Origin: Microcoleus sp. | GTDB taxonomy: Bacteria; Cyanobacteriota; Cyanobacteriia; Cyanobacteriales; Microcoleaceae | Length of the DNA: 64,000 bases | Assembly (NCBI GenBank): GCA_042408215.1 | Contig: JAYFMW010000003.1 | Span: 32,001-96,000, forward strand | Direction: 5' to 3' | Shown here: positions 9,563-22,480 of the stretch, in pieces | How the letters are laid out: each line of letters opens with the position of its first letter | Position numbering within the stretch: the stretch's first letter is position 1 | Position numbers and translations under genes: made by a program | The notes under the pieces: generated by a model | Database searches by the model: none | Told to the model about the DNA's origin: nothing | The model's input: only the letters and a program-made list of their open reading frames with translations

Positions 9563-10432
9563 ATGAGTATAGTTATGAGCCTAATTTCACACTTTACTGG
9601 AAAAATCAAAGATCAGCCAGTAAAATCTGTGAATCTGTGGCAAATATTAGCAATCTCACTGCTACTAACCGGCATATTGAACGGTTTAGCGCGAGAAACA
9701 CCCGAACATTTGTCAACGACACATCCTATTATCTCCGAACCAATTAACCAGCAAGTTGCCGAAATTGCACATCTTGTCACTGTCAGAATTTTATCTGATT
9801 CTGTGTCCGGTTCCGGCGTAATTATTCAGCATCAAAACCAAACTTATACTGTTTTGACTAACAATCATGTCGTAGCTGATAATAAAGACAAAACTTATCA
9901 AGTATTGACAGCCGACGGACGGATTCATATTGCTAAATGGCTGCGTTCATCTCAGTTTGGTAAAGTAGATTTAGCTTTAATACAGTTTACCACTTCTGAA
10001 ACCTATCGAGTTGCGGAAATCGGAAACTCAAATAAGCTATCGGTGGGAGATGGGGTTTATGCTGCGGGTTTTCCGAATTGGCATTGGATTAATTCAGAGT
10101 CTATAGAGAAGACTCGGAATTGGGGGCTAAAAGCTTTTAAGTTAACGAGTGGGAAAGTGGGAATGTTGCCGGATCAATCCCTTGAGAGTGGATACCAACT
10201 TGGTTACACTAATGATATTGCCGAGGGGATGAGTGGCGGGCCTGTGTTGGATAGTTCTGGTAAGTTGGTGGGGATTAATGGCAAATCGAAATATCCTTTG
10301 GGGGGAATTGATGTGTTTAAGTTGGCGGATGGGAGTTTGCCTACTCAGGCGGTTTTTAGGCAGATGGAAGCTTTGAGTTGGGCGATTCCGATTGATACTT
10401 TTCAGGAGTTGGTGAGTCATCTGAAGGCATAA
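9563..10432 (+). CDS. Trypsin-like (S1) serine protease
   Basis: LTNNHVV, DLALI, GMSGGPVL catalytic triad motifs; N-terminal hydrophobic segment. Confidence 0.92.
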   Translation: MSIVMSLISHFTGKIKDQPVKSVNLWQILAISLLLTGILNGLARETPEHLSTTHPIISEPINQQVAEIAHLVTVRILSDSVSGSGVIIQHQNQTYTVLTNNHVVADNKDKTYQVLTADGRIHIAKWLRSSQFGKVDLALIQFTTSETYRVAEIGNSNKLSVGDGVYAAGFPNWHWINSESIEKTRNWGLKAFKLTSGKVGMLPDQSLESGYQLGYTNDIAEGMSGGPVLDSSGKLVGINGKSKYPLGGIDVFKLADGSLPTQAVFRQMEALSWAIPIDTFQELVSHLKA

Positions 10433-10449
10433 TTATTCTCAGCTAGTCG

Positions 10450-12099
10450 CTACGGTTCGGATAGTTTTTTCACGTTGTCAACAGCCCGTTGATACCAAAT
10501 ACCTGTATTCCCTTGTTGCTTATACAAATCAGCGGCTTTTTGGTAATCTTCGATTGCACTCTGTTTGTCGTTAATAGCAGATTTGACAGTCCCCCGATTG
10601 TAGTAGGCAATAGCATTGTTAGGATTAAGCCCAATAGCCCGATCGTAATCTGCGATCGCCTCTTCTTTTCTCCCTAGGGCAGATTTGGCTGCACCCCGAT
10701 TGACGTAGGCATTAGCAAAGTTAGAATCAAGCTGAATAGCCAGATCGTAATCTGCGATCGCATCTTCTTTTCTCCCTAGGGCAGATTTGGCTGAACCCCG
10801 ATTGCTGTAGGCATTAGCAAAGTTAGAATCAAGCTGAATAGCCCGATCGTAATCTGCGATCGCATCTTCTTTTCTCCCTAGGGCAGATTTGGCTGCACCC
10901 CGATTGTAGTAGGCATCAGCATAGTTGGGATTAAGCTGAATAGCCCGATCGTAATCTGCGATCGCATCTTGGTTTTTCCCTAGGTTATACTTGGCTGAAC
11001 CCCGATTGTTGTAGGCAACATCATAGTTAGGATCAAGCTGAATAGCCCGATCGTAATCTGCGATCGCATCTTCTTTTCTCCCTAGGGCATATTTGGCTAA
11101 ACCCCGATTGTAGTAGGCAAAAGCAAAGTTAGAATCAAGCTGAATAGCCCGATCGTAATCTGCGATCGCCTCTTGTTTTTTCCCTAGGACAGATTTGGCT
11201 AAACCCCGACCGTAGTAGGCATTAGCAAAGTTAGAATCAAGCTGAATAGCCCGATCGTAATCTGCGATCGCATCTTCTTTTCTCCCTAGGGCAGATTTGG
11301 CTGAACCCCGATTGCTGTAGGCAAAAGCAAAGTTAGAATCAAGCTGAATAGCCCGATCGTAATCTGCGATCGCATCTTCTTTTCTCCCTAGGGCAGATTT
11401 GGCTGAACCTCGATTGTTGTAGGCACCAGCAAAGTTAGAATCAATCTGAATAGCCCGATCGTAATCTGCGATCGCCTCTTGTTTGTTGCCTAGGTTAGAC
11501 TTGGCTAAACCCCGATTGTTGTAGGCAATAGCATAGTTGGGATTAAGCTGAATAGCCCGATCGTAATCTGCGACCGCATCTTGTTTGTTGCCTAGGGCAT
11601 ACTTGGCTAAACCCCGATTGTAGTAGGCAAAAGCAAAGTTAGAATCAAGCTGAATAGCCCGATCGTAATCTGCGATCGCATCTTGGTTTCTCCCTAGGGC
11701 ATATTTGGCTAAACCCCGATTGCTGTAGGCAAAAGCAAAGTTAGAATCAAGCTGAATAGCCCGATCGTAATCTGCGATCGCATCTTCTTTTTTCCCTAGG
11801 TCATATTTGCCTAAACCCCGATTGTTGTAGGCAAAAGCATCGTTGGGATCAAGCTGAATAGCCCGATCGTAATCTGCAATCGCATCTTCTTTTTTCCCTA
11901 GGTCATATTTGGCATAACCCCGATTGACGTAGGCCTCAGCATAGTTGGGATTAAGCTTAATAGCCCGATCGTAATCTGCGATCGCCTCTTGGTTTCTCCC
12001 TAGGGCACATTTGGCATCACCCCGATTGTAGTAGGCATCAGCATCGTTGGGATTAAGTTTAATAGCCCGATCGTAATCTGCGAGCGATTTTGTAGTCAT
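10450..12099 (-). CDS. Tetratricopeptide-repeat protein with 15 near-identical 34-aa repeats
   Basis: AYxNRGxAKxxLGxxxxAIADYDRAIQL repeats with 102-nt periodicity. Confidence 0.95.
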   Translation of the reverse strand: MTTKSLADYDRAIKLNPNDADAYYNRGDAKCALGRNQEAIADYDRAIKLNPNYAEAYVNRGYAKYDLGKKEDAIADYDRAIQLDPNDAFAYNNRGLGKYDLGKKEDAIADYDRAIQLDSNFAFAYSNRGLAKYALGRNQDAIADYDRAIQLDSNFAFAYYNRGLAKYALGNKQDAVADYDRAIQLNPNYAIAYNNRGLAKSNLGNKQEAIADYDRAIQIDSNFAGAYNNRGSAKSALGRKEDAIADYDRAIQLDSNFAFAYSNRGSAKSALGRKEDAIADYDRAIQLDSNFANAYYGRGLAKSVLGKKQEAIADYDRAIQLDSNFAFAYYNRGLAKYALGRKEDAIADYDRAIQLDPNYDVAYNNRGSAKYNLGKNQDAIADYDRAIQLNPNYADAYYNRGAAKSALGRKEDAIADYDRAIQLDSNFANAYSNRGSAKSALGRKEDAIADYDLAIQLDSNFANAYVNRGAAKSALGRKEEAIADYDRAIGLNPNNAIAYYNRGTVKSAINDKQSAIEDYQKAADLYKQQGNTGIWYQRAVDNVKKLSEP

Positions 12100-12211
12100 T
12101 GCCTTATTCCAGTTATTGAATTTTAATGAAGCTGCTTCCCCGACGGTTCAGAGAAGTACGCCGAATCCGATCGGAGTGTGTGATAATTATAAAAAATATT
12201 ATATCAAAAAA

Positions 12212-13246
12212 ATGATTACAGGGAAAACTATTGGCGGACATTACCACATAATCAGGTTATTGGGTAAAGGTGGATTTGGTGAAACCTACTTAGCACATGA
12301 CGAACATCTACCCGACAAGCCCCCGCGTGTAGTCAAGAGATTCAAGCCCCAGTCCAATGATCCCTTCTTGCTGCAAGAAGCCAAACGCCTGTTTGACAGC
12401 GAGCCTCAACACCTGTACAAGTTAGGTAGCCACGATCGCATTCCGCAGCTATTCGCCCACTTCGAGGAAAATCAAGAATATTATCTCGTCCAAGAGTTAA
12501 TTGCGGGACATGATTTGAGTCACGAATTCAACCCCTCTCAACAAACGGGAGCGAAGGGAGTTCAGTTCAATGAAAGTCAAGTCATTGAATTATTGTATGA
12601 TATTTTAGATGTATTGAAATCAGTTCATCAACAAAATATCATCCACCGAGATATCAAGCCCTCTAATCTAATGCGGCGCGATTCCGATGGTAGGATTGTC
12701 TTGATTGACTTTGGGGCTGTCAAACAAATCGGTAGCCAACTCAAATATTCTCAAGGCCAACCGCAGACAGTTCCGATCGGCACTCCGGGATATACGCCCA
12801 GCGAACAAGAAAAGGGGCATCCCAAGTTGTGCAGTGATGTCTATGCAGTCGGAATGACTGCTATCCAAGCACTGACGGGGGTATTTCCTCACGAGTTGCC
12901 AAAAGATCCCAATACCCTAGAAGTTATGTGGAGGGATCGAGTATCAGTCAGCCCAAAATTCGCAGCTATTTTAGATATAATGGTGCGATACCAATGGCAA
13001 CAGCGCTACCAGTCAGCCGATGAAGCTTTAAGTGCGATTCAGCATCTAGTAAAATCGTCAACAGCACCGACAATTGTTTCCCTTCCTCCACCTTGGCATT
13101 GGCTCAATTCACCAGCCATCAAAAAATTGTTAATCGGTTTAGTTTGCTTAGGAATTGTGGCTGTTGGTGGGATTTTTATTACTCAATTTATGAGGACACA
13201 ACCAGGCTGGCAGCCAACTTCTGCCCCAAATAAACCGGTACTTTAA
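12212..13246 (+). CDS. Hanks-type Ser/Thr protein kinase with a C-terminal TM helix
   Basis: LGKGGFG, VVK, HRDIKPSN, DFG, GTPGY motifs. Confidence 0.93.
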   Translation: MITGKTIGGHYHIIRLLGKGGFGETYLAHDEHLPDKPPRVVKRFKPQSNDPFLLQEAKRLFDSEPQHLYKLGSHDRIPQLFAHFEENQEYYLVQELIAGHDLSHEFNPSQQTGAKGVQFNESQVIELLYDILDVLKSVHQQNIIHRDIKPSNLMRRDSDGRIVLIDFGAVKQIGSQLKYSQGQPQTVPIGTPGYTPSEQEKGHPKLCSDVYAVGMTAIQALTGVFPHELPKDPNTLEVMWRDRVSVSPKFAAILDIMVRYQWQQRYQSADEALSAIQHLVKSSTAPTIVSLPPPWHWLNSPAIKKLLIGLVCLGIVAVGGIFITQFMRTQPGWQPTSAPNKPVL

Positions 13247-13526
13247 ACTAGCTCAAAAACATCTCGTGTAAAAAAAATATGACTGGACAAAAATTTGACC
13301 GAATTCTGTTGATTGCCGGGTTTTTAATCGCATTAATTGCGGCGATTCCCCAAGTTTATAACTTTGAAAAACCAGGATTTTTCTGGCAAACAGATGTATC
13401 AAGTCGCCAGATTCAGCAACAGCCAAATATTCAATCCAACCCGAATGCTGGTTTATAGGATAGCAGTTTTAGAGAATTCAGAAAGGCGAGCCCATAATTC
13501 ATCAAAAGGGCGATCGCCTTCCATCG

Positions 13527-13590
13527 TAGGGACACGGCATTGCCGTCTCCTACCGGGGGCTCAAAGGACACGGCAATGCCGTGTCCCTAC
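13527..13590. repeat. GTAG-type REP-like doublet
   Basis: GTAGGGACACGGCATTGCCGT... and ...ACACGGCAATGCCGTGTCCCTAC. Confidence 0.65.
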
Positions 13591-13718
13591 CGGGCAATTA
13601 AGAAGGGCGATCGCCCTTCCTTTTTGAAGAGCGATCGCCCTTTTTAAACTATCCGAATTGCATCAACTCAGAAGTCATGCTATAATTTGCTTATACATTA
13701 ATTTCACGCTCGATACCC

Positions 13719-14018
13719 TTGGATTATAACTTTGATTGGAATATAGCCAAAGAAAAGCAAAATATTCGCAAGCATCAATTAAATTTTCGTTTGGCTTCAA
13801 CTATTTGACGCGATCCTTATCAATTAACAATCTATGATGAAGAACACAGTCAAGATGAAGATAGATGGATTACCATAGGTTTAGATGAAACAGGCATTGT
13901 CAGGCTGGTTGTCCATACTTTTGAACAAACTGATAGCTCCTCCTGCATCATTCGGATTATTTCCGCTCGGCAAGCTACTTTCACTGAAACACAATATTAT
14001 CAAGAGAGAAAATTATGA
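13719..14018 (+). pseudogene. BrnT-family toxin with an in-frame stop
   Basis: Manual translation LDYNFDWNIAKEKQNIRKHQLNF...STI*RDP...EDRWITIG...IRIISAR; TGA at 13806-13808. Confidence 0.8.
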
Positions 14019-14215
14019 AATCAGAGTATGATTTTTCTGCGTCAGAACAAGGCAAGTTTTACCATCCTGATGCTACGTTTCATTATCCGATTTATCTCGA
14101 AGCTGATGTCGAGCAGTTTGTGACTAAAATTGCTGAACATAAAAATATTGACGTTCAAGTTTTGGTCAATGAATGGCTGAGGAATAACATTAAATTAATT
14201 CAAAGTATTGAGTAG
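14015..14215 (+). CDS. BrnA-like/CopG-like antitoxin
   Basis: MKSEYDFS...GKFY; ATGA overlap with the BrnT-like gene. Confidence 0.75.
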   Translation: MKSEYDFSASEQGKFYHPDATFHYPIYLEADVEQFVTKIAEHKNIDVQVLVNEWLRNNIKLIQSIE

Positions 14216-14500
14216 GTTAGAAACCCGGTTGCTTTGAGAAACTATGAACTTTCAATAAATAAAGAGCGATCGCCCTTTCTCACCCAGATTCAGAAAGGCG
14301 ATCGCCCATAATTCATCCAACGAGCGATCGCCCTTCTGACATCCGCGTTAATCAGCGTCCATCTGCGGTCAAAAAAGAGCGATCGCCCTTTCTAATAATT
14401 CAAAAGGGCGATCGCCCTTATTTTGCATTCAACTAACAAAAAATTGTCATTTCAGCCAATAATTGCTAAAATGATCGCAAAATACTATTCTGATTAGCCA

Positions 14501-14722
14501 ATGAGCAACATCTCTATCAGCTTGCCAGATGAATTACTCACATACGTCAATCAAAAAGCGCCCAACCCCAGTGCTTTGATAGAAGCTCTCTTAAAACAAT
14601 GGCGAAAACAACAAGAAAACCAAGCTTTAGCAGAAGCTTGCAAGCTAATTGACGAATTAGATTTAGGATGGGATGAGGAATGGCAAGCTCAAGCGATTAC
14701 CGACTGGGAAGTATCTGGATAG
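14501..14722 (+). CDS. Ribbon-helix-helix antitoxin
   Basis: ISISLPDELL RHH start and acidic tail; overlaps the downstream toxin. Confidence 0.75.
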   Translation: MSNISISLPDELLTYVNQKAPNPSALIEALLKQWRKQQENQALAEACKLIDELDLGWDEEWQAQAITDWEVSG

Positions 14723-15042
14723 CTAGATTCGATCCGTCAGTAGGAACAGAAATACGCAAAACGCGGCCTGCCTTAGTCATTTCTGGTACGCTGTTCAACG
14801 AGCGACGCAGCAAAGTGACTGTTTTGCCATTTACCTCCGCTCGTCCTCACGATCCTCGGATTTCTGCTGCTGCGATCTTAATACCTGCATCCCCACAAAA
14901 TGGTTTAGATGCAGATAGTTTGCTAGTCTGTGTCGATCCCATGACTTTCGATAAAACGAGATTAGTGCAACAACTCGGTCAATTGGAATCGGAGCTATTT
15001 TCCCAATCTCAAGAGATTTTGCAGCGCTATCTGGAATTATAG
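14680..15042 (+). CDS. PemK/MazF family toxin
   Basis: FDPSVGTEIRKTRPALVIS motif. Confidence 0.9.
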   Translation: MASSSDYRLGSIWIARFDPSVGTEIRKTRPALVISGTLFNERRSKVTVLPFTSARPHDPRISAAAILIPASPQNGLDADSLLVCVDPMTFDKTRLVQQLGQLESELFSQSQEILQRYLEL

Positions 15043-15132
15043 CGATCGCCCTTTCTAATAATTCAGAAAGGCGATCGCTCTTCATTCATCAATCTATAAT
15101 TTATGATTAGACAAGAGCGATATGCGATAAAT

Positions 15133-15525
15133 TCAATACCAGTCCGCGATCGCCAGTCCTGAAACTCTCGAAAACTCCTTGACATTGTGAGTAACAAGAG
15201 TTGCTTGAAGTGAAGCGGCTGTCCCTGCAATCAAAACATCGATCGGGCCGATAGGAGTACCTTTTTGCTCCAATTGAGCGCGGATTGTGGCAGCAGCAAC
15301 AGCACAATCGCGATCGAAAGGAACAACATTAACTCGGCTTAAAAGTTGCTGAAGTTGTTGGATACGTTTTGCAGGCGAAGTAGATTTAGCAATACCCACT
15401 TGCAATTCAAACAGGACGAGTGTAGAAATTCCAATTTCTTGAGGAGATACATTGGCAATGTTTTGGACAACTTGTCCTTGTCCTTTAAAATAGTAGATTA
15501 ATGTATTTGTATCCAAAATGTACAT
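15133..15525 (-). CDS. VapC (PIN-domain) toxin
   Basis: YILDTN...EL...D.LIA.TA...LVTHN..EF.RV.GL...W. Confidence 0.93.
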   Translation of the reverse strand: MYILDTNTLIYYFKGQGQVVQNIANVSPQEIGISTLVLFELQVGIAKSTSPAKRIQQLQQLLSRVNVVPFDRDCAVAAATIRAQLEQKGTPIGPIDVLIAGTAASLQATLVTHNVKEFSRVSGLAIADWY

Positions 15526-15777
15526 CTAGAAGCTCTCTCGCAAAATGTCTTCCCCCGACTCAGCACGAATCTCTTCCAGAGTCGGAAAGTCTTCTGCCCA
15601 CGCTCCAGCTAGGGAATAAACCAGTTCCGTCCAAGGAGTTGCAGAATCTACTGTATCGGTGGATTGGTTTGCATTTAGGTACTTGGCACGAATCAACTCA
15701 GCGAAAGTCAGAATTTCGCTAGCTTGGTTTTGGGGAAGGGTTTTGACGATCGCGTATATTTGTTCAATAACAGTCAT
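15526..15777 (-). CDS. DUF2281-like antitoxin
   Basis: TLPQNQASEILTFAELI; directly upstream of vapC. Confidence 0.7.
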   Translation of the reverse strand: MTVIEQIYAIVKTLPQNQASEILTFAELIRAKYLNANQSTDTVDSATPWTELVYSLAGAWAEDFPTLEEIRAESGEDILRESF

Positions 15778-15908
15778 AATCGGATTATAGATTAAGAGCA
15801 GTTTAGCTTATTTTAGCAATTATAATCGGTTTAGTTCCAAAGGCGTTAGGAGAAATTATATCGCTTCTACTTGTAGGATGGAATAACCGCTTGCATCTGG
15901 CAATTTCC

Positions 15909-16278
15909 ATGACCAACCCCATCCAGCAAGAAGCCCGCCAAATTCAAGGGCACTCTCGCCTTTACCCCCTTCGATCGGTGCCATCCCCTCAGCCGCGACT
16001 TCGACACAATTCCTGCTAGAGTAGGTTTGTACGCCTTTCGACATCGCACTGAAGGATTGCTCTACATCGGCAAAGCCAAGAACCTCCGCGATCGACTCCG
16101 AGGTGGTCACAAAGCCTTTCTCTGGGGCTGGCTCGATCGCTACGATCCTGATGATGTGAGGATCGCCTTCGTTACCCTCAACCAATGGCAAAAACCAGGG
16201 TTATTATATGAATTAGAAACCCTGATCCTTCAAGCTACAAATCCTCCCTACAACGTTAAAATTCCCAGAGAACAATGA
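15909..16278 (+). pseudogene. Small GIY-YIG nuclease gene with a +1 frameshift near its 5' end
   Basis: GLYAF...LLYIGKAKNLRDRL...E...PPYN motifs; the ATG at 15909 (MTNPIQQEARQI) is one base out of frame with them. Confidence 0.7.
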
Positions 16279-16520
16279 ATCATACCCTCAACATCCAACA
16301 CTTGCCACCATCCGCTATTCATTCGCTGATGACCCATTTGCCGGACTATGTGAAAGTCGCCCTGATGGAAAAAGCTACGCAACTAGAATGCTCTCTCGAA
16401 GCTGCGATCGAAATGGCGATAGCTAGTTTTCTCGACTCAGAAGCTTTCAGCTTTGAAGATTGCCTATTATCGCAACGTCTTCAGGAATCAGAACTGGTAG
16501 AATCTTCGCAAAGGAAATAG
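16275..16520 (+). CDS. Small hypothetical protein coupled to the GIY-YIG gene
   Basis: ATGA overlap; RHH-like LPDYVK...LEAAIEMAIASFL. Confidence 0.65.
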   Translation: MNHTLNIQHLPPSAIHSLMTHLPDYVKVALMEKATQLECSLEAAIEMAIASFLDSEAFSFEDCLLSQRLQESELVESSQRK

Positions 16521-16631
16521 GGTGCGAGATCCCTTTTGGAACTATTCGCAAAGGGCGATCGCCCGTTTTATAATCAAAATGGCGATCGCCTCGTAACCTA
16601 TTGATTATTGCTTCTTTAAAAGGCTTGAAAA

Positions 16632-16994
16632 TTACAAAGCAAACACGATTCTGAGAGCTAGATCGATTTTTACGATCACCTCTGGTTCAAGTTCACCTCG
16701 GATATCTACCCCACGAGAACCATAATCAATAGGGCGGGTTTGCAAACAATCAGCAATAGATTTTTTTGTTAACCCATTTCTTTCAGACGGTTCAATCTCC
16801 ACATTACTTTTAATCTTGGCTTTTTTTTCACTCCAAGCAGTAATTGGAACAACCTGGATTACAGGAACTCGCTCATTATAAGTATTGTTTGTCACAACAA
16901 CACAAGGTCTAATTTTCCCAGTTTCAGAACCCTTAGTTGGATCGAGATTAACTTCAATAATTAAACCACGTTTCAATTTTATAACTTCGGCCAT
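16632..16994 (-). CDS. PemK/MazF family toxin
   Basis: LDPTKGSETGKIRPCVVV motif. Confidence 0.9.
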   Translation of the reverse strand: MAEVIKLKRGLIIEVNLDPTKGSETGKIRPCVVVTNNTYNERVPVIQVVPITAWSEKKAKIKSNVEIEPSERNGLTKKSIADCLQTRPIDYGSRGVDIRGELEPEVIVKIDLALRIVFAL

Positions 16995-17218
16995 TCTTCT
17001 AAACCTAACTCCGTCAATTCTTGCAAGTCTGTATCTTCCTTATAGATTTCTGCATAGAGAGCCGCAGATTCTTCCAATCGCTCCGCTTCTAATGCTAATT
17101 CCAGGCGTTTAATTGCGATTCTTACTACTTCATTCGCGTCTTTAAATCCATAGTTTTGACAACTTTGGAGAAATTCGATCTGAGATTCATCCAGTTCAAA
17201 TGTTTGCTCTTTCATCAT
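16979..17218 (-). CDS. Putative antitoxin (CopG-like)
   Basis: Acidic 79-aa ORF overlapping the toxin start. Confidence 0.7.
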   Translation of the reverse strand: MMKEQTFELDESQIEFLQSCQNYGFKDANEVVRIAIKRLELALEAERLEESAALYAEIYKEDTDLQELTELGLEEWPKL

Positions 17219-17282
17219 AGTAAAAATTCTGGCAAGCTTTGGTATATTACTCTTGAAAACTAGGATTAAATAAACTGCCACT

Positions 17283-17345
17283 TTAATGATAACATACATT
17301 TCCAAAAATTTCTATGACCAGCGGACGTTTTTGGATCGAGGTCAT
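17283..17345 (-). pseudogene. Probable 5' stub of a ParE/RelE toxin
   Basis: ATG overlaps the ParD-like stop; MTSIQKRPLVI resembles ParE N-termini, then the ORF ends at 20 aa. Confidence 0.4.
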
Positions 17346-17614
17346 TTTTCTTCCTGCAACCCCTGCTTCTGGGAAATACGCGATCGCACAGCTTGACGAA
17401 TCTCCATCCAATCCTCCTCAGTCATCGCCGTAGGATTTCCCGATTCCAAACCTTCTAATAACATCGCTTCCAAACGTTCTGAAGCTTTGCGTTTTTGGTC
17501 TTGGCGAATTAACTCGCGGAAATACTCGCTAGCTGTACTATAACCACCTTGAGCTACCTGTGCTTCTATATAAGTTCGCATTGAGTCAGGTAGAGAAATA
17601 TTCATGCTTGTCAC
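17342..17614 (-). CDS. ParD-family RHH antitoxin
   Basis: MNISLP...VAQGGYSTASEYFRELIR...LLEGLESG. Confidence 0.88.
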   Translation of the reverse strand: MTSMNISLPDSMRTYIEAQVAQGGYSTASEYFRELIRQDQKRKASERLEAMLLEGLESGNPTAMTEEDWMEIRQAVRSRISQKQGLQEEK

Positions 17615-17831
17615 GGGTATTACTTACCTCATTTAACTCGTTATCTTATTATGGCATATTTTGCCATTTTTTGTCAAGTCTCACAACCAGTAATTTTTTA
17701 AGAGAATGGGAAACGCGATCGCCCTTTCTAATAATTCAGAAGGGCGATCGATCTGGCTAAATTTATGATATAATTACCCATCAGTTACACCTAGATTTGC
17801 CCACTTCTTTTGATATAAAGGAGTAAAGCCC

Positions 17832-18113
17832 GTGAAAATAGAAGAATTATTGCAAACAAAAGGAATTATTCACCGCGATCCAGAAATTATGAGCGGTTTC
17901 CCCATATTTGTCGATACCCGCGTCCCCTTAAAGACTTTGTTCGATTACCTGGAAGGTGAAAGCGGTTTCGCAGAATTTGTTAATGATTTTCCTTACCTAG
18001 AAAGTCAGGTAATTAAAGTGCTAGAAAATCTCACTAAATCGCTCCAACCAATATTCATTCACCACCACCGAAAACCCAACTTTCCTGAACTATGTCATCA
18101 GGTAACATCCTAA
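17832..18113 (+). CDS. DUF433-family protein (tail probably non-native)
   Basis: IHRDPEIMSGFPIFVDTRVPLKTLFDYLE...DFPYL. Confidence 0.8.
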   Translation: MKIEELLQTKGIIHRDPEIMSGFPIFVDTRVPLKTLFDYLEGESGFAEFVNDFPYLESQVIKVLENLTKSLQPIFIHHHRKPNFPELCHQVTS

Positions 18114-18412
18114 CTGTCACAGATGTTCTCAATTTCCTTGTCAGTGGAATCGATAAAACTACCCTCGAAACAGAACTTACTACTTCCGGTTGGATATCCA
18201 CTCCAGCTAGAGGAGGCTCAAAAAGCGGTGCGGGTACAATTTGGACAAGCCCAAACACTCAATACAGTGTCAGAATTATGACTCAACCTGATGGTTCATC
18301 CTATGCTCGTGTTTACAATGGCCCAGGAGGAGGTGCACCCGCAGAACAACCCCTAAACGCATCAGGAAAACCCGGAAGTCGTGGAGACACCCACTTTATT
18401 CTGCTCCCTTAA
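18092..18412 (+). CDS. Hypothetical protein resembling a polymorphic-toxin C-terminal domain
   Basis: 106 aa, Gly-rich, VRIM...YARVY...GKPGSRGDTHF ending. Confidence 0.55.
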   Translation: MSSGNILTVTDVLNFLVSGIDKTTLETELTTSGWISTPARGGSKSGAGTIWTSPNTQYSVRIMTQPDGSSYARVYNGPGGGAPAEQPLNASGKPGSRGDTHFILLP

Positions 18413-18432
18413 ACCTATTTATTCGTCAGATT

Positions 18433-18858
18433 ATGAACTTTGAAGAAATTTGGCAACAATACGATTTTACCGAATCAGAATTGCTATCAATGGGGTGGCA
18501 ATTTCCCTATGATTATGTCCTCAATCTCAACTACTATTGGCAACTAACTCCAACTAATTCTACTTCTCAAGTTGCTACCACAGACCAATTTTTAAACATT
18601 ATCCTCAAAACCTGCATTCGACTGGATGTACAACTCAACCCAAATCCCGATGAGTTAAATCGAAAGCCTACAAACCTCGGCACAATCGTCGGCTGGGAGC
18701 AAGTTACTTCCTCTCCTTGGTTAGAAAATCTATCCCTTTCTCCTAATGAGTGGCTGCATCTGTTATTTGAAATTGGTGGAAACAACAAAATAGAAGCTGT
18801 TTGTCGCTCGATCGCGATCGAACAATTAGTCACACAACCCTTAGCACTCAGTTCATAA
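18433..18858 (+). CDS. Hypothetical protein, candidate immunity protein
   Basis: 141-aa aromatic-rich ORF 20 nt downstream of the candidate toxin. Confidence 0.55.
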   Translation: MNFEEIWQQYDFTESELLSMGWQFPYDYVLNLNYYWQLTPTNSTSQVATTDQFLNIILKTCIRLDVQLNPNPDELNRKPTNLGTIVGWEQVTSSPWLENLSLSPNEWLHLLFEIGGNNKIEAVCRSIAIEQLVTQPLALSS

Positions 18859-18873
18859 AAAGATATAAATACT

Positions 18874-19119
18874 ATGTCATCCCCAGAACTAAACCTAGCC
18901 GATAACTGGGAATTCACAGAATTATGGGTAGATCCGACAGCATCACCACCTTACGTCCTAATTTTACTCGGTGACAGTTCAGGTAATAGCTGTGTCTACG
19001 ATCCTGCTCAAAATTATCAGATTGTATTTGCGAGTTCAGATTATCAAGAAGCTAAACTTTGGCTATTAGAAGATGAATACGAACGAGTAGAGCGTCGGTT
19101 ACAATTGTCAGCAGCATGA
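18874..19119 (+). CDS. Small acidic hypothetical protein
   Basis: 81-aa ORF co-oriented 15 nt downstream (...AKLWLLEDEYE). Confidence 0.65.
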   Translation: MSSPELNLADNWEFTELWVDPTASPPYVLILLGDSSGNSCVYDPAQNYQIVFASSDYQEAKLWLLEDEYERVERRLQLSAA

Positions 19120-19122
19120 CCC

Positions 19123-19272
19123 CTATTTTTCGGAAAATGGGGAAGAGCGATCGGGATATTCTGCATTATAAACGTCGGAACTAATCACAACTGCTGGACG
19201 TTTTTTATTAGTAGTTTGAGCGGTAAAGGGAAACGGAACTAAAACCACATCACCAAAATTATAACTCGTCAT
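19123..19272 (-). pseudogene. Truncated PemK/MazF toxin
   Basis: FGDVVLVPFPFT...KKRPAVVISS; similarity stops at a CGATCG site after about 41 codons. Confidence 0.8.
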
Positions 19273-19468
19273 ACTCAGCATCCTCTGAGTTATCCCAAAT
19301 TTTAGCAAAAGCTGCTTCTGAGAGTTTAGTTGCAGTATAAACTAGCAGACGAGCTTCACTTCGCGTTAATAGGAAGTCGATAAAATCTTCTAATACCGTA
19401 ATTTGCTCTGGCGGTAAACTACGGATTTTTTCCATCAGCTTTGTTTCAGGGTTTTGGGCGATACTCAT
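19259..19468 (-). CDS. DUF2281-like antitoxin
   Basis: IRSLPPEQITVLEDFIDFL...WDNSEDAEYDEL. Confidence 0.75.
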   Translation of the reverse strand: MSIAQNPETKLMEKIRSLPPEQITVLEDFIDFLLTRSEARLLVYTATKLSEAAFAKIWDNSEDAEYDEL

Positions 19469-19603
19469 GTTATATCTCACTTGTTTATTGACAAAACAGC
19501 ATAGATATGATATATCGTCAATTTTTGCATTCCACTAACAAATGGTATTAATAACTATCTTGGTCTAGGTAAATGCAATAGTCGATCGCATTTACCAGCC
19601 TAC

Positions 19604-20032
19604 TTACTTCGCCTTCACCACCAGCACCGAACAGTGAGCATCCGCCACCACCTGAGAGCTCACCGAACCCTCCAAAATCCGCTTCACACCAGTCAAACCC
19701 CGACAGCCGATCGCAATTACATCAGCCTGATAGATATTAGCCAAACGCACAATCTCCTCCGCCGGTTCCCCCGAAACAATCTCCAACTCGCTCTCGCAAG
19801 GCAACTTTTCCTGATAAGATTGCAGCAACCTTTCCACCTTTCGGTAAGGAACCTCATCTCCCTGAGAGTGAGGTCGATCGAGCATCATCTCAAAATCCGA
19901 CGTTCCCGAAGTCACAACATGAACTAGAATCACCTTTGTTGTCGGTTCTAGCTGGAATTTTCCCACAGCTTGCAACACCTGTTCGGCAAACTCTGAATCG
20001 TCTATCGCTACCAAAACTGTCTTCAATACCAT
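19604..20032 (-). CDS. Universal stress protein
   Basis: VLVAIDDS...IAIGCRGLTG...GSVSSQVVADAHCSVLVVK. Confidence 0.93.
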   Translation of the reverse strand: MVLKTVLVAIDDSEFAEQVLQAVGKFQLEPTTKVILVHVVTSGTSDFEMMLDRPHSQGDEVPYRKVERLLQSYQEKLPCESELEIVSGEPAEEIVRLANIYQADVIAIGCRGLTGVKRILEGSVSSQVVADAHCSVLVVKAK

Positions 20033-20125: not shown

Positions 20126-20464
20126 CAGAAAATTGGGTTTGAAACCCCGTCCTTTGAGGACGGCTTTATATTTCCCCTTTCGGGGTGGAGGGGTATGGTT
20201 GCCCCCTCCCTTGGAGATATGGTTGTCTCCGTTTTTCCCTTTCGGGTAATGTTCGCTTCGCCAATGTTATAAGAGCTTGTTAGACCTGCAACACTGTTCC
20301 AGTGACCTTAGAACTGTTTAATCGCAGATGACAGAGCGGAAAACTAGCGTCGCATTCTCCGGTGTCGTGACTCGAATAACGTAGCCAGTTAAGGCGATAG
20401 CTGGTCAGAATAGCTTGTTCGATTACTCTTACAAGCTCCGGCCCTTAAGGGCGGGGTTCCTGAC
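20126..20464 (-). mobile_element. ORF-less IS200/IS605 derivative carrying an IscB-type omegaRNA (HEARO-like)
   Basis: GTCAGGAACCCCGCCC end; GACCAG..CTACGTT..GAATGCG..GCTAGTTTTC..ACATTGGCGAAGC..ACCCGAAAGGG motifs shared with 48640-48886; terminal hairpin AAAGCCGTCC...GGACGGGGTTT; followed by ATGA. Confidence 0.85.
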
Positions 20465-20551
20465 AAATAGAGATTCCTAGATTGTTGCCTACTTGCAACC
20501 ATCTTTCACTTCCCACCAGCACCACCCATCTAAAATCTACCATCTAGAAGG

Positions 20552-20768: not shown

Positions 20769-22082
20769 CTAAAATTCTGCATCCCGATCGTTTTCAGTCC
20801 GCAGCCGCACCGAATCAGCGTGAGAAGGAAGCCCCTCTGCTTCGGCCAAAACATTAATCGCCTTACTCACCTTTTTCAGTGCTGTCGGCGAATATTCAAT
20901 CAAACTCGAATGCTTAATAAAAGTTTCGACACCCAGCGGCGAAGCATAGCGGGGAGAGCCCGAAGTCGGCAAAGTGTGATTCGGCCCCGCCAAATAGTCT
21001 CCCACAGCTTCCGGCGTCGAGTAGCCCAAGAAAATCGCCCCAGCGTGGCGAATTTGCTCCAGCAAGGCCCAGGGATCTGCCACTTGCAATTCCAAGTGTT
21101 CCGGGGCAAACTCGTTAGAGAGTTCCGCCGCCGTCTTGAGAGACTCAACTACCACGACTAAACCATAATTAGCGATCGCCTTTTCTGTTAAAGTTCGGCG
21201 CGGGTGATTTGTCAACTGTCTGTCTACCTCAGCCACCACTTTTCTCGCCAGCACCGAATCCGCCGTCAGCAAAATCGCCGACGCCATCGAATCATGTTCA
21301 GCTTGAGCCAACATATCCGCAGCTACGTGGACAGGATTTGCCGAGCCGTCTGCGATAATCAGCACCTCCGACGGGCCCGCCAGAGAATCAATCCCCACAT
21401 TCCCGTAAACCAGTTTTTTCGCTAGCGTGACGTAAATATTCCCCGGCCCAGTAATTAAATCCACCTTCGGAATAGTTTCCGTACCGTAGGCCAAAGCCGC
21501 GATCGCCTGGGCCCCACCTACCCGATAAATCTCATCAACTCCCGCTTCCTGAGCCGCTACGAGTACCGCAGGATTCATTTTCTTCTCCTGTCCGGGGGGA
21601 GTACACATCACCAGTCTCGGAACCTTGGCGACCTTTGCAGGCACCGCATTCATAATCACCGAGCTGGGATAGGACGCTTGACCGCCTGGGATGTAAATTC
21701 CCGCTCGATCGACCGGCGTATACCGCTTGCCCAAAACTATCTCGTCATCGCCAAACTGTACCCAAGACTTCGGGACGCGCTGTCGGTGAAACGCCTCTAC
21801 CTGTTTGCAAGCCAGCCGGATTGCATTTAATAATTCTTTCGACACCTGCTGGTAAGCAGCATCCAATTCGGCGCCACTCACCCGCAATTCTTCCGCATTT
21901 AGGGTGATGCGGTCGAATTCAGCGGTGTAGTGCAGCACAGCCAGATCGCCTTTGCGCCTTACAGCTTGCAGCACTTCCCGCACAGTTGCTTCTTTGTGAA
22001 CGACGAGTTCGTCATGGGTGCGATCGCAGATCCGTCGCAGTTCAGCTTGTGCTTCAACCCACTGAGTAATGATTCGCAGCAT
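20769..22082 (-). CDS. hisD: Histidinol dehydrogenase
   Basis: [41 protein letters not shown] at 22082. Confidence 0.96.
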
Positions 22083-22215
22083 GGAGATTAGGAATGCCTT
22101 CCCTAGGAATTGCCCGCCTGAGATCCGGGTGCCGAGGGAGAAGACAAGAGGGGGAGAGAGGAGAGACCAGGAGGGGGAGAGACCAGGAGTGGGAGAAGGG
22201 GAGAATTGCGAAAAT

Positions 22216-22292
22216 CTGCCTTCTGCCCTCTGCCTTCTGCCTTCTGCCCTCTGCCCTCTGCCTTCTGCCTTCTGCCTTCTGCCTTCTGCCTT
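22216..22292. repeat. STRR tract (CCTTCTG)
   Basis: About 11 tandem heptamers. Confidence 0.9.
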
Positions 22293-22480
22293 CGGTAAGT
22301 GCTTCTTGCCGAAGCCCAAATCACCCATACTCTTTGTTATAGCTTAACTTGGATTTTTCCGGGAATCGCATTTTTAGCAGAATAAGTGCTATGTTAGTTT
22401 CTCGGATACTTTGTAATTTTTTTATAAAAAAACGCCCAAATTATTGTATACTTGAAAATTGCGTGCAAGACAATCGTGAC

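Follow-up and report, generated by a model that had tools for sequence, protein, structure and literature searches.

A HIP1-punctuated array of toxin-antitoxin and nuclease cassettes that is reordered among Microcoleus genomes

The window analyzed here, a 64,000-nucleotide stretch of Microcoleus sp. DNA, carries an island flanked by Ser/Thr kinase and Usp genes (Pfam), with Pfam matches to BrnT, PemK/MazF (three), PIN with its DUF2281 partner, GIY-YIG, ParD, and DUF433. No integrase or transposase was detected among the 21 window ORFs scanned by Pfam, in agreement with the initial annotation, whose modules and repeats were recovered at the coordinates given for them. Its count of about nine modules becomes ten cassettes, however, and its "unknown trio" combines a toxin-tip/immunity-like pair with an 81-aa gene of another cassette, the two having been fused by a deletion. 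The island contains 15 perfect HIP1 sites in 6,145 bp, against 4.3 expected. An Rfam scan returned only HEARO above its cut-off, outside the island, and no CRISPR match; this result and the genes between the repeats rule against a CRISPR array. The array is not an assembly artefact: the island is covered at high identity by independent metagenome contigs, and several of its junctions are spanned by them (for example, 15810-17744 with 0 differences). Its features are as follows (window coordinates).

13459..13638, plus strand: left linker, with a degenerate unit, HIP1 13510, a GTAG-type REP-like hairpin (13526-13590), HIP1 13607, the 16-nt unit e, and HIP1 13631
13631..14273, plus strand: cassette B, brnT (13719-14018, with an internal TGA at 13806-13808) and a 66-aa partner (14015-14215), HIP1 at each end
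14266..14415, plus strand: long linker d-b1-c-a, HIP1 at 14266, 14298, 14324, 14379, and 14408 parting units of 24, 18, 47, and 21 nt
14408..15049, plus strand: cassette M1, MazE-like antitoxin (14501-14722) and MazF (14680-15042), stop codon overlapping the right HIP1
15042..15078, plus strand: 37-bp unit a (HIP1-21 nt-HIP1)
15071..15845, minus strand: cassette V, DUF2281 antitoxin (15526-15777) and PIN toxin (15133-15525)
15843..15864, plus strand: split HIP1 (GCG, 14-nt filler, ATCGC) at the joint between cassettes V and G
15860..16531, plus strand: cassette G, frameshifted GIY-YIG nuclease gene (15909-16278) and an 81-aa partner (16275-16520); variant site GCGAGATC at its right end (16524)
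16524..16589, plus strand: linker g-b2, sites at 16524, 16555, and 16582
16582..17314, minus strand: cassette M2, antitoxin (16979-17218) and MazF (16632-16994)
17321..17722, minus strand: cassette P remnant, ParD (17342-17614), with the ParE of relatives deleted
17715..17751, plus strand: third copy of 37-bp unit a
17744..18039, plus strand: cassette D remnant, DUF433 gene, with the DUF5615 partner deleted
18040..18858, plus strand: cassette U, a 106-aa polymorphic-toxin-tip-like protein (18092-18412) and a 141-aa probable immunity protein, so assigned from its position (18433-18858)
18874..19153, plus strand: cassette O remnant, 81-aa gene, preceded in relatives by its partner DUF6972
19147..19153, plus strand: off-target joint between the end site of cassette O and a GCGATCG within mazF3, 7-bp overlap
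19147..19480, minus strand: cassette M3 remnant, DUF2281 antitoxin (19259-19480) and the initial portion of MazF

Several of these cassettes are broken: besides the interrupted brnT, the GIY-YIG gene has a frameshift near 15946, mazF3 is truncated at 19147, and ParD and DUF433 are missing partners that are present in relatives. Five of the nine internal junctions are deletion scars. The right end of M2 was removed by a deletion whose edge adjoins a site present in a relative, and the D/U joint (18038-18042) is the central AT of the former HIP1 of cassette U. Relatives carry full HIP1 at both parent ends of the split site. At the off-target joint the remaining part of the mazF3 toxin gene has been deleted, and array L016 likewise has a joint at a CGATCG-like word inside mazF3. 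Cassette B has kept both end sites in seven of eight copies, and in near-identical metagenome contigs linker units stand in place of the REP-containing block of the left linker.

The junctions are strings of small HIP1-to-HIP1 units that tend to follow the order d/a, b1, c, a/d, b2, with 1 to 9 sites per junction. The 37-mer singled out by the initial annotation is one among about eight such HIP1-bounded sub-units, several of which have no extended stem like its own. It is exact only at 15042-15078, with at most 2 mismatches at 14379-14415 and 17715-17751; it does overlap a mazF stop as described, the TAG at 15040-15042 sharing its G with the first unit base. Its reported presence at many junctions holds only in part, with intact linkers at just four of the nine internal junctions and none at the remainder. 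Mapped genome-wide with up to 6 mismatches allowed, it has three copies in 7.36 Mb, all in the array, and across the genus 30 of 79 genomes have it, each at one or two loci, with all copies of a locus on the same strand; in line with the initial proposal, it is limited to such arrays and not spread across intergenic DNA. Unit c contains a dispersed repeat, only 2 of whose 45 genome copies have HIP1 nearby. The three copies of unit a at one locus, and the location of the single RAYT of the genome on another contig, rule against a REP/RAYT (REPIN) system.

Among 65 clean junctions there were 34 different linker compositions, some without an extended-stem unit, and four single-site junctions; units were also doubled in tandem (c-c, b2-b2). 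Cassette ends tend to keep the same neighbor (unit d at the right end of P in 10 of 16, unit b2 at the left ends of U in 7 of 8 and of C in 5 of 5), as if the linker moves together with the cassette. The right end of cassette G adjoins four different units, and shared sequence past the site is only 2-5 nt; together with the single-site junctions, the tandem doublings, and the off-target joints in mazF3, this shows that the site itself can also be the point of exchange. Overall, 205 of 324 cassette ends abut a HIP1-type site. GATC is retained at 460 of 512 unit edges versus full HIP1 at 217 of 512 (shared edges counted twice), which hints that GATC is a recognised core. Linker units diverge by 3.7-16%, and outside the genus their sequence yielded weak partial matches only (E of 1e-7 or worse).

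Comparison of 37 arrays from 33 genomes revealed 12 shared cassettes in 37 different orders, which bears out the proposal that cassettes are gained, lost, and reordered. Co-occurring pairs were found in both orders in 45 of 65 cases, cassette adjacencies amounted to 59 of 132, and arrays L013 and L037 contain duplicated cassettes. None of 221 module matches was inverted: the mixed orientation reported earlier is true of the genes, four of the 12 cassettes being read against the array direction, but not of the cassettes, each of which keeps one orientation in all arrays. We conclude that the array is real and shuffling. Between genomes, nine of ten compared cassette genes diverge by 1.5-6.7% (MazF2, 11%) and flanking core genes by 7.6-11.9%, and the distances of different cassettes correlate poorly (ρ = −0.17 to 0.41). 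Low divergence and poor correlation are consistent with transfer between strains.

A second array of the genome, on contig C6, holds a copy of cassette V that is 91% identical. Like arrays in other cyanobacterial families, it has the same build with other linkers, and linker sequences are wholly different between loci and between families. Paired extended HIP1 marks only 6 of the 46 toxin-antitoxin loci of the genome, most being without it; across the class, with only the best MazF match per genome taken, it accompanied 1 of 30 MazF loci and 0 of 30 thioredoxin loci, which lends no support to a general association of MazF with paired HIP1.

Breakpoints had been expected to fall at CGATCG sites. 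Across arrays they are enriched there: 350 of 759 distinct non-coding homology ends lie near a site (23% by chance), 39% do so in both partners (5% expected), and the second array gives 22 of 35 intergenic ends (30% expected). However, about half of all breakpoints are ordinary deletions away from sites, and in the window alone intergenic ends show no excess (48 of 171 near perfect HIP1, versus 27% for random intergenic positions); counting all homology ends in the window, 50 of 245 lie within 12 nt of perfect HIP1, versus 7% expected overall. A decay gradient along the arrays was not convincing (clean junctions, 64% in the first half versus 51% in the second). Metagenome joints of a "goes back" type, considered as circles, were linear contigs with the linker upstream of another cassette.

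The explanation we favor, with somewhat more confidence than doubt, is that HIP1-bounded modules are reordered between genomes by general host recombination on repeated asymmetric linkers, together with short-homology slippage between HIP1 copies and without a dedicated integrase. Cassettes would carry partial linker on each side, and crossovers within 30-150 bp of direct-repeat homology would exchange them between copies of the chromosome or with imported DNA of relatives; the genome encodes ComEC and a Dam-family methylase. Linker units could be gained or dropped by slippage or annealing between HIP1 copies sharing only 8-15 bp. Incoming DNA would be anchored by homology on one side and joined on the other at HIP1 or chance microhomology, as in homology-facilitated illegitimate recombination (HFIR; PMC6382021, accessible text), and joining of this type would yield both clean and eroded joints. 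Toxin-antitoxin content would slow array loss, and decayed cassettes may be replaced from the genus pool. The constant polarity speaks for direct-repeat homology because a bare symmetric 8-mer should permit inversion. Accessible portions of earlier work also link HIP1 to plasmid and illegitimate recombination (PMC4390886) and to raised transformation and recombination (bioRxiv 2024.09.10.611283).

Several observations count against general recombination on linkers. In the hairpin units the type of the left arm covaries with that of the right (52/12/9/15 unique sequences, Fisher p 1.7e-4, kin not independent), a link that plain homology does not call for, and the GATC retention at unit edges points the same way. 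The left array border has a site in 35 of 37 arrays and the right border in 8 of 37, an integron-like asymmetry. The 14-nt filler that follows the third base of the split HIP1 points to cutting at a defined position. The favored explanation, which rests on comparison, also leaves unexplained how a new gene first acquires HIP1 ends. A bolder and more doubtful proposal is an integron-like cassette system of cyanobacteria with no integrase gene at the locus, in which host machinery recognises pairs of HIP1 (core GATC), cuts or joins after the third base, and inserts polar cassettes at the left end of the array, with lineage-specific linkers; if true, this would give HIP1 a concrete natural function and add a phylum-wide class of mobile gene cassettes to those known.

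One alternative, which we regard as unlikely, holds that the paired-HIP1 hairpins are attC-like polar sites, recognised in single-stranded form by an enzyme whose gene lies elsewhere (a tyrosine recombinase or a HUH/RAYT-type nuclease). The repeated units can form single-strand hairpins, all in one orientation; these are stable (unit a at 15042..15078, about −13 kcal/mol, z about −6 on either strand) and have a bulged base, which together with the arm covariation, the strict polarity, and the left-anchored array favors such an enzyme, but both strands fold equally well. Candidates above cut-off comprise five tyrosine recombinases, 25 resolvase-family matches, and the one RAYT, and a RAYT lies a few kilobases from the array in 2 of 20 loci with annotated flanks (L019 and L022). 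Yet the closest resolvase match on the contig is about 120 kb off and the closest tyrosine recombinase about 410 kb off, no recombinase is among the 67 flanking ORFs scanned, and the best IntI match (TIGR02249) reaches 29.4 bits against a cut-off of 265 in a 99.98% complete genome. Cores of attC are paired RYYYAAC ... GTTRRRY motifs; the plus strand of five window junctions contained no GTTRRRY and three RYYYAAC without a partner, so the initial reading of the units as attC-like sites is not supported in the strict sense. The variety of linker compositions, the units without an extended stem, the unrelated linkers of other loci and families, and the many imprecise joints also weigh against a hairpin-reading enzyme. 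No circle joint appeared in metagenome contigs of 8 runs, which is weak evidence because contigs drop rare forms.

It is less likely still that HIP1 or GATC marks nick or cut sites (through methylation-linked repair or processing of incoming DNA), or is written by repair, the linkers being end-joined scars. The split HIP1 and its filler, the joint at the central AT, the GATC retention, and junctions with a site on one side only (24 of 125) would fit, as would the 21-nt inserts between GCG and ATCGC in linkers of array L172 from another family (6 copies), which occupy the SDR5 position (PMC4390886, accessible text). By eye, four of the five eroded window junctions have a breakpoint in or beside a site, but of some 24 distinct erosion events only about 9 involve one. 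Linker units are conserved and ordered, unlike random scars, and palindrome end-joining alone would not preserve orientation. The anchor gene before the array encodes a secreted S8-peptidase whose C-terminal tip varies, 11 tip types being present among 16 anchors; its polymorphic switch points are not at CGATCG, apart from 2 of 16 that both fall within linkers. Finally, the idea that the hairpins are terminators or RNA-stability elements of each module, with passive HIP1 build-up and independent insertions at a tolerant hot spot, draws on three terminator-like extended HIP1 sites, the dispersed repeat in unit c, the position behind a polymorphic secreted-protein gene, and the lack of an intergenic excess in the window, but is largely refuted and very improbable, given no clear excess of terminator-like sites (9 versus 5.9 ± 2.5), linkers equally frequent between convergent, divergent, and tandem genes, homology ends enriched at sites across arrays, and the fact that independent insertion gives neither 0 of 221 inversions nor whole-unit variation.

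Thirty years after HIP1 became known, there is still no agreement on its function, according to the accessible text of PMC13756078. We found no description of HIP1-delimited toxin-antitoxin arrays in the literature, mostly open texts; Elhai 2008 may hold related repeats. Here HIP1 belongs to the structure of a natural cassette system that exists in dozens of independent configurations, and HIP1-directed recombination becomes directly testable, since linker homology, hairpin, GATC core, and methylation can be altered separately. The array also shows how Microcoleus, a mat former, passes toxin-antitoxin, nuclease, and toxin-immunity modules from species to species. Integron-finding tools are expected to miss such arrays, and HIP1-punctuated linkers suggest themselves as a search handle for similar ones in other cyanobacteria.

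Orphan toxin-tip/immunity arrays lie behind polymorphic toxin genes, and recombinase-associated arrays serve interbacterial defence. The Microcoleus array resembles the former in following a secreted protein with a variable C-terminal tip and in cassette U, which is such a tip; it differs from both in its mostly type II toxin-antitoxin cargo, the absence of an adjoining recombinase, and tip switches that are not at HIP1. With integrons and CALIN (PMC4889954, accessible text) it shares ordered small mobile cassettes of constant polarity, repeated hairpin sites, toxin-antitoxin cargo, and cassette reordering and duplication. An integron has one site per cassette and crosses over at a fixed base, whereas the array has composite linkers of varying unit number, four of 12 cassettes against the array direction, and many imprecise joints; with 1-9 sites per junction and neither IntI nor the attC core, an integron or CALIN is ruled against. 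The dif/pdif modules of Acinetobacter plasmids (PMC13141974, accessible text) are likewise bounded by short sites, often carry toxin-antitoxin genes, and are shuffled without their own recombinase, but they invert, and the Microcoleus array is chromosomal. The absence of inversion and of 28-bp XerC-spacer-XerD sites rules against this class; the best XerD box match at four junctions had 3-4 mismatches of 11.

HIP1-associated events are also on record from cyanobacteria. SDR5 of Nostocaceae, a 21-nt insert after the third HIP1 base (Elhai 2008, cited in PMC4390886, accessible text), is likewise small HIP1-associated DNA, with the same third-base insertion as the split site of the window and L172. 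The window insert is single and 14 nt long, and no repeated 21-nt insert was found in genome G000; SDR5 lies within one site, unlike array units, which have a full site on either side and flank genes. There are also reports of deletion and plasmid recombination mediated by HIP1 (Gupta 1993, Robinson 1997, and Akiyama 1998, as cited in the accessible text of PMC13756078 and PMC4390886), including a HIP1-flanked deletion at smtB; the accessible text of PMC13756078 also states that a HIP1-binding complex was not found. These cases share joints at GCGATCGC or its core with the Microcoleus array, but they are single deletions or laboratory plasmid fusions, whereas in Microcoleus HIP1 is built into repeated linkers that organize a genus-wide cassette pool.

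The genome under study (7.36 Mb, cyanobacterial, with 5097 occurrences of GCGATCGC) holds an island of ten small modules, located between a Ser/Thr kinase gene (12116-13246) plus a 59-aa open reading frame (ORF) and usp (19604-20032). Perfect HIP1 octamers occur 15 times in the island, versus 4.3 expected. The island is covered by contigs from 8 public runs, and several of these contigs span junctions, with 0-11 differences over ~1.9 kb. The initial annotation had linked a 37-bp paired-HIP1 unit to the array, and genome-wide mapping agreed: at ≤6 mismatches the genome contained only three copies, all in the island. In a 185,579-species collection, the unit pattern had 38 exact matches, all titled Microcoleus, Tychonema, or Oscillatoriales/cyanobacteria. 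It was present in 30 of 79 genomes of the genus, here called Microcoleus (reversed control, 0); each of these had it at one or two loci, and no locus had it on both strands.

Clean junctions are strings of short linker units with a HIP1-type octamer (here, a site) at either end.

Linker units and the nucleotides between their sites
a: 21
d: 24
g: 23
b1: 18
b2: 19
c: 47
e: 16
f: 16

The 37-mer corresponds to site-a-site. Unit order is mostly runs of d/a, b1, c, a/d, and b2, and 34 compositions were found among 65 parsed junctions (4 skipped). Of 512 edges of units found by inner sequence alone, 460 carried GATC, 336 CGATCG, and 217 perfect HIP1. The common site variants, GCGAGATC at the left and GATCTCGC at the right, are mutual complements. 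In hairpin units the left and right variants vary together (52/12/9/15, p = 1.7e-4), a figure that, the sequences being related, is not a clean statistic. Two other repeats lie among the linkers. One, a dispersed 30-bp repeat at 14341-14370 (45 genome copies, HIP1-adjacent in only 2), is a passenger within unit c. The other is a double palindrome between two HIP1 sites (13526-13590), which we take to be of the GTAG REP-like type; near-identical populations have linker units in its place.

Modules recurred as discrete blocks, 90-98% identical, in new neighborhoods in a DNA search of 41 genomes. From 39 fetched loci we left out L029, L030, and L032, in each of which one module stands among other linkers, and compared the remaining 36 with the window, setting locus orientation from the modules or the linker strand. 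These 37 arrays from 33 genomes contained 12 cassette types in 37 different orders, although contig ends cut some arrays and short arrays differ trivially. Both orders were found for 45 of the 65 co-occurring cassette pairs, and deletion from one ancestral order therefore cannot be their source. Of 132 possible adjacencies, 59 were realized; none of 221 module hits was reversed. Order differed even between genomes closest by core genes. Alternative joints at the same coordinates were detected in metagenome contigs, where 15079-15094 was joined to 15860, 17321, 18047, 19147, or 13606. Arrays are located at two places in the chromosome, in front of SLOG/wecB or of [usp]-hisD, and are preceded by either an S8-peptidase gene or TPR/kinase genes.

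The TPR gene (10450-12099) contains ~15 near-identical 102-bp repeats that vary in copy number among relatives, and the adjacent kinase gene is cut and fused to the MazF1 cassette end in five loci. A heptamer tandem repeat of the GCCTTCT type upstream of hisD (22080-22330) is likewise variable in length. Insertion elements unrelated to the linkers lie inside cassettes in two loci (L037, ~9730-11040, oriented; L039, in the DUF5615 gene). A non-autonomous IS200/IS605-type element (20130-20470), missing at the matching place in another genome (G008) and with further copies elsewhere in the genome under study, includes one RNA:

20246-20464, minus strand, HEARO (OMEGA) RNA, 153.6 bits

The initial proposal implied breakpoints at HIP1 cores; homology ends were enriched near sites across arrays but not within the window alone. 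With distance windows picked after the data were seen, a site stood at the expected distance from 115 left and 90 right cassette ends (162 of each examined). Sites flanked both sides in 69 of 125 junctions (39 of 59 adjacency types), and 6.8% of random 28-nt intergenic windows held a site. All-against-all alignment, which uses no preset windows, placed 350 of 759 distinct non-coding homology ends ≤10 nt from a site (versus 23%), with a site near the end in both partners in 39% (versus 5%). A second array in the same genome (contig C6), which has other linkers, was compared with 21 loci with no prior definitions: 28 of 50 ends lay near a site (versus 10%), and 22 of 35 when intergenic ends alone were counted (versus 30%). 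The window alone showed no enrichment of intergenic ends near perfect HIP1 (48 of 171 versus 27%), since deletion scars make up five of its nine internal junctions. Across the set, most eroded junctions reflect ordinary deletion, with an overlap of 0-5 bp or short filler; by eye, ~9 of some 24 distinct erosion events touch a site. In the window, where the cassettes are lettered B, M1, V, G, M2, P, D, U, O, and M3 from left to right, four of the five eroded junctions have a breakpoint in or beside a site:

V/G junction: HIP1 split by 14 nt that follow GCG
M2/P junction: deletion end adjoining a site
D/U junction: joint at the central AT
O/M3 junction: joint at GCGATCG inside mazF, with 7-bp overlap

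The fixed polarity favors direct-repeat homology or a polar site over exchange at a bare symmetric octamer. Preferred neighbor units persist at cassette ends, as expected if a cassette carries linker along. The end of cassette G adjoins four different units, which past the site have 2-5 nt in common, and a single site makes up each of four junctions; short-homology events at HIP1 thus occur too. Divergence in most cassettes is about half that of the flanking core genes, and the distances of different cassettes correlate poorly with one another, which is consistent with exchange among species. The account that we favor, with moderate confidence, has three parts, every step of which we infer from comparison: general recombination would act on the linkers, slippage would occur at HIP1, and incoming DNA would be joined on one side.

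The units fold as DNA hairpins (z = −4.3 to −6.7, strands equal where both were folded), part of this stability coming from the two palindromic ends. A hairpin-reading enzyme acting in trans is conceivable but improbable. As initially noted, the island is free of integrase and transposase genes, and no recombinase was found among 21 ORFs in the window or 67 in the flanks. The genome encodes five tyrosine recombinases, the nearest ~410 kb from the array; the nearest resolvase-family hit is ~120 kb away; and a RAYT gene lies near the array in only 2 loci. ComEC and a Dam-family methylase are also encoded. The proposal that the units are attC-like sites was not upheld in the strict sense: no IntI scored over the cut-off in this genome, and no attC motif was found in the junctions tested. 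Junctions examined for an Xer box motif had none. Cutting or scar-writing at HIP1/GATC seems a shade less probable again. That the hairpins are passive terminators is very unlikely.

Beyond the island, paired extended HIP1 lay ≤400 bp from 10 of 59 toxin-antitoxin hits in the genome, versus 1.3% of 2752 small control ORFs, and at only 6 of its 46 toxin-antitoxin loci. The second array (L029, contig C6, ~220.6-223.1 kb) and a third (L178, contig C8, ~134-137 kb) are toxin-antitoxin arrays, each with paired-HIP1 linkers of its own; in relatives, modules of the former turn up at other places, their ends lying at HIP1. On contig C17 (109808-110150), seven HIP1 sites in alternating longer repeats lie upstream of a 3395-aa ORF, with no toxin-antitoxin genes seen nearby. 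Among eight loci from other families, a biased choice made by match to a module or linker, four (L170, L172, L173, and L177) are toxin-antitoxin arrays, several junctions of which have tandem-HIP1 runs of their own sequence. L172 (G030:C1 5717000-5727000) has ~eight toxin-antitoxin/Uma2 modules with tandem HIP1 repeats between them; these repeats include six SDR5-like inserts, each 21 nt long and directly following the third HIP1 base. A general link between MazF and paired HIP1 was unsupported in an unbiased class-wide sample of the best MazF hit per genome (1/30 versus 0/30 thioredoxin loci).

In the array cargo, toxin-immunity-like pairs occur alongside type II toxin-antitoxin modules. Cassette U encodes a 106-aa protein similar to polymorphic-toxin tips (leads at 0.90-0.91); it shares 78% identity with the C-terminal end of an S8 peptidase of 947 aa, itself a relative of the usual anchor gene, behind which arrays stand. 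The anchor gene has 11 tip types in 16 loci; the array thus lies behind a polymorphic secreted-protein gene. The anchors (L018:5782-9789, L026:3632-7612, and others) encode S8 peptidase-DUF4114-LysM-LGFP proteins (~1300-1500 aa) whose C-terminal tip is polymorphic, and look like a polymorphic effector family.

In the portions of the literature consulted, single HIP1-flanked deletions (PMC13756078), plasmid recombination at HIP1 and SDR5 insertion in HIP1 (PMC4390886), and enhancement of transformation by HIP1 (bioRxiv 2024.09.10.611283) are reported, and foreign genes are said to tend to be HIP1-poor (among PMC4390886, PMC5861425, PMC9239245, PMC3025956, PMC13756078, and bioRxiv 2024.09.10.611283). 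Earlier HIP1/SDR5 studies are represented through citing papers (Elhai 2008, Akiyama 1998, Robinson 1997, and Gupta 1993). Neither these portions nor the results of literature searches described HIP1-linked cassette arrays. The comparison also drew on work on integrons/CALIN (PMC4889954), dif modules (PMC13141974), and HFIR (PMC6382021). The array behaves like an integron and like a dif-module array, yet by the defining tests it is neither. We therefore class it as a variant of repeat-mediated cassette arrays.
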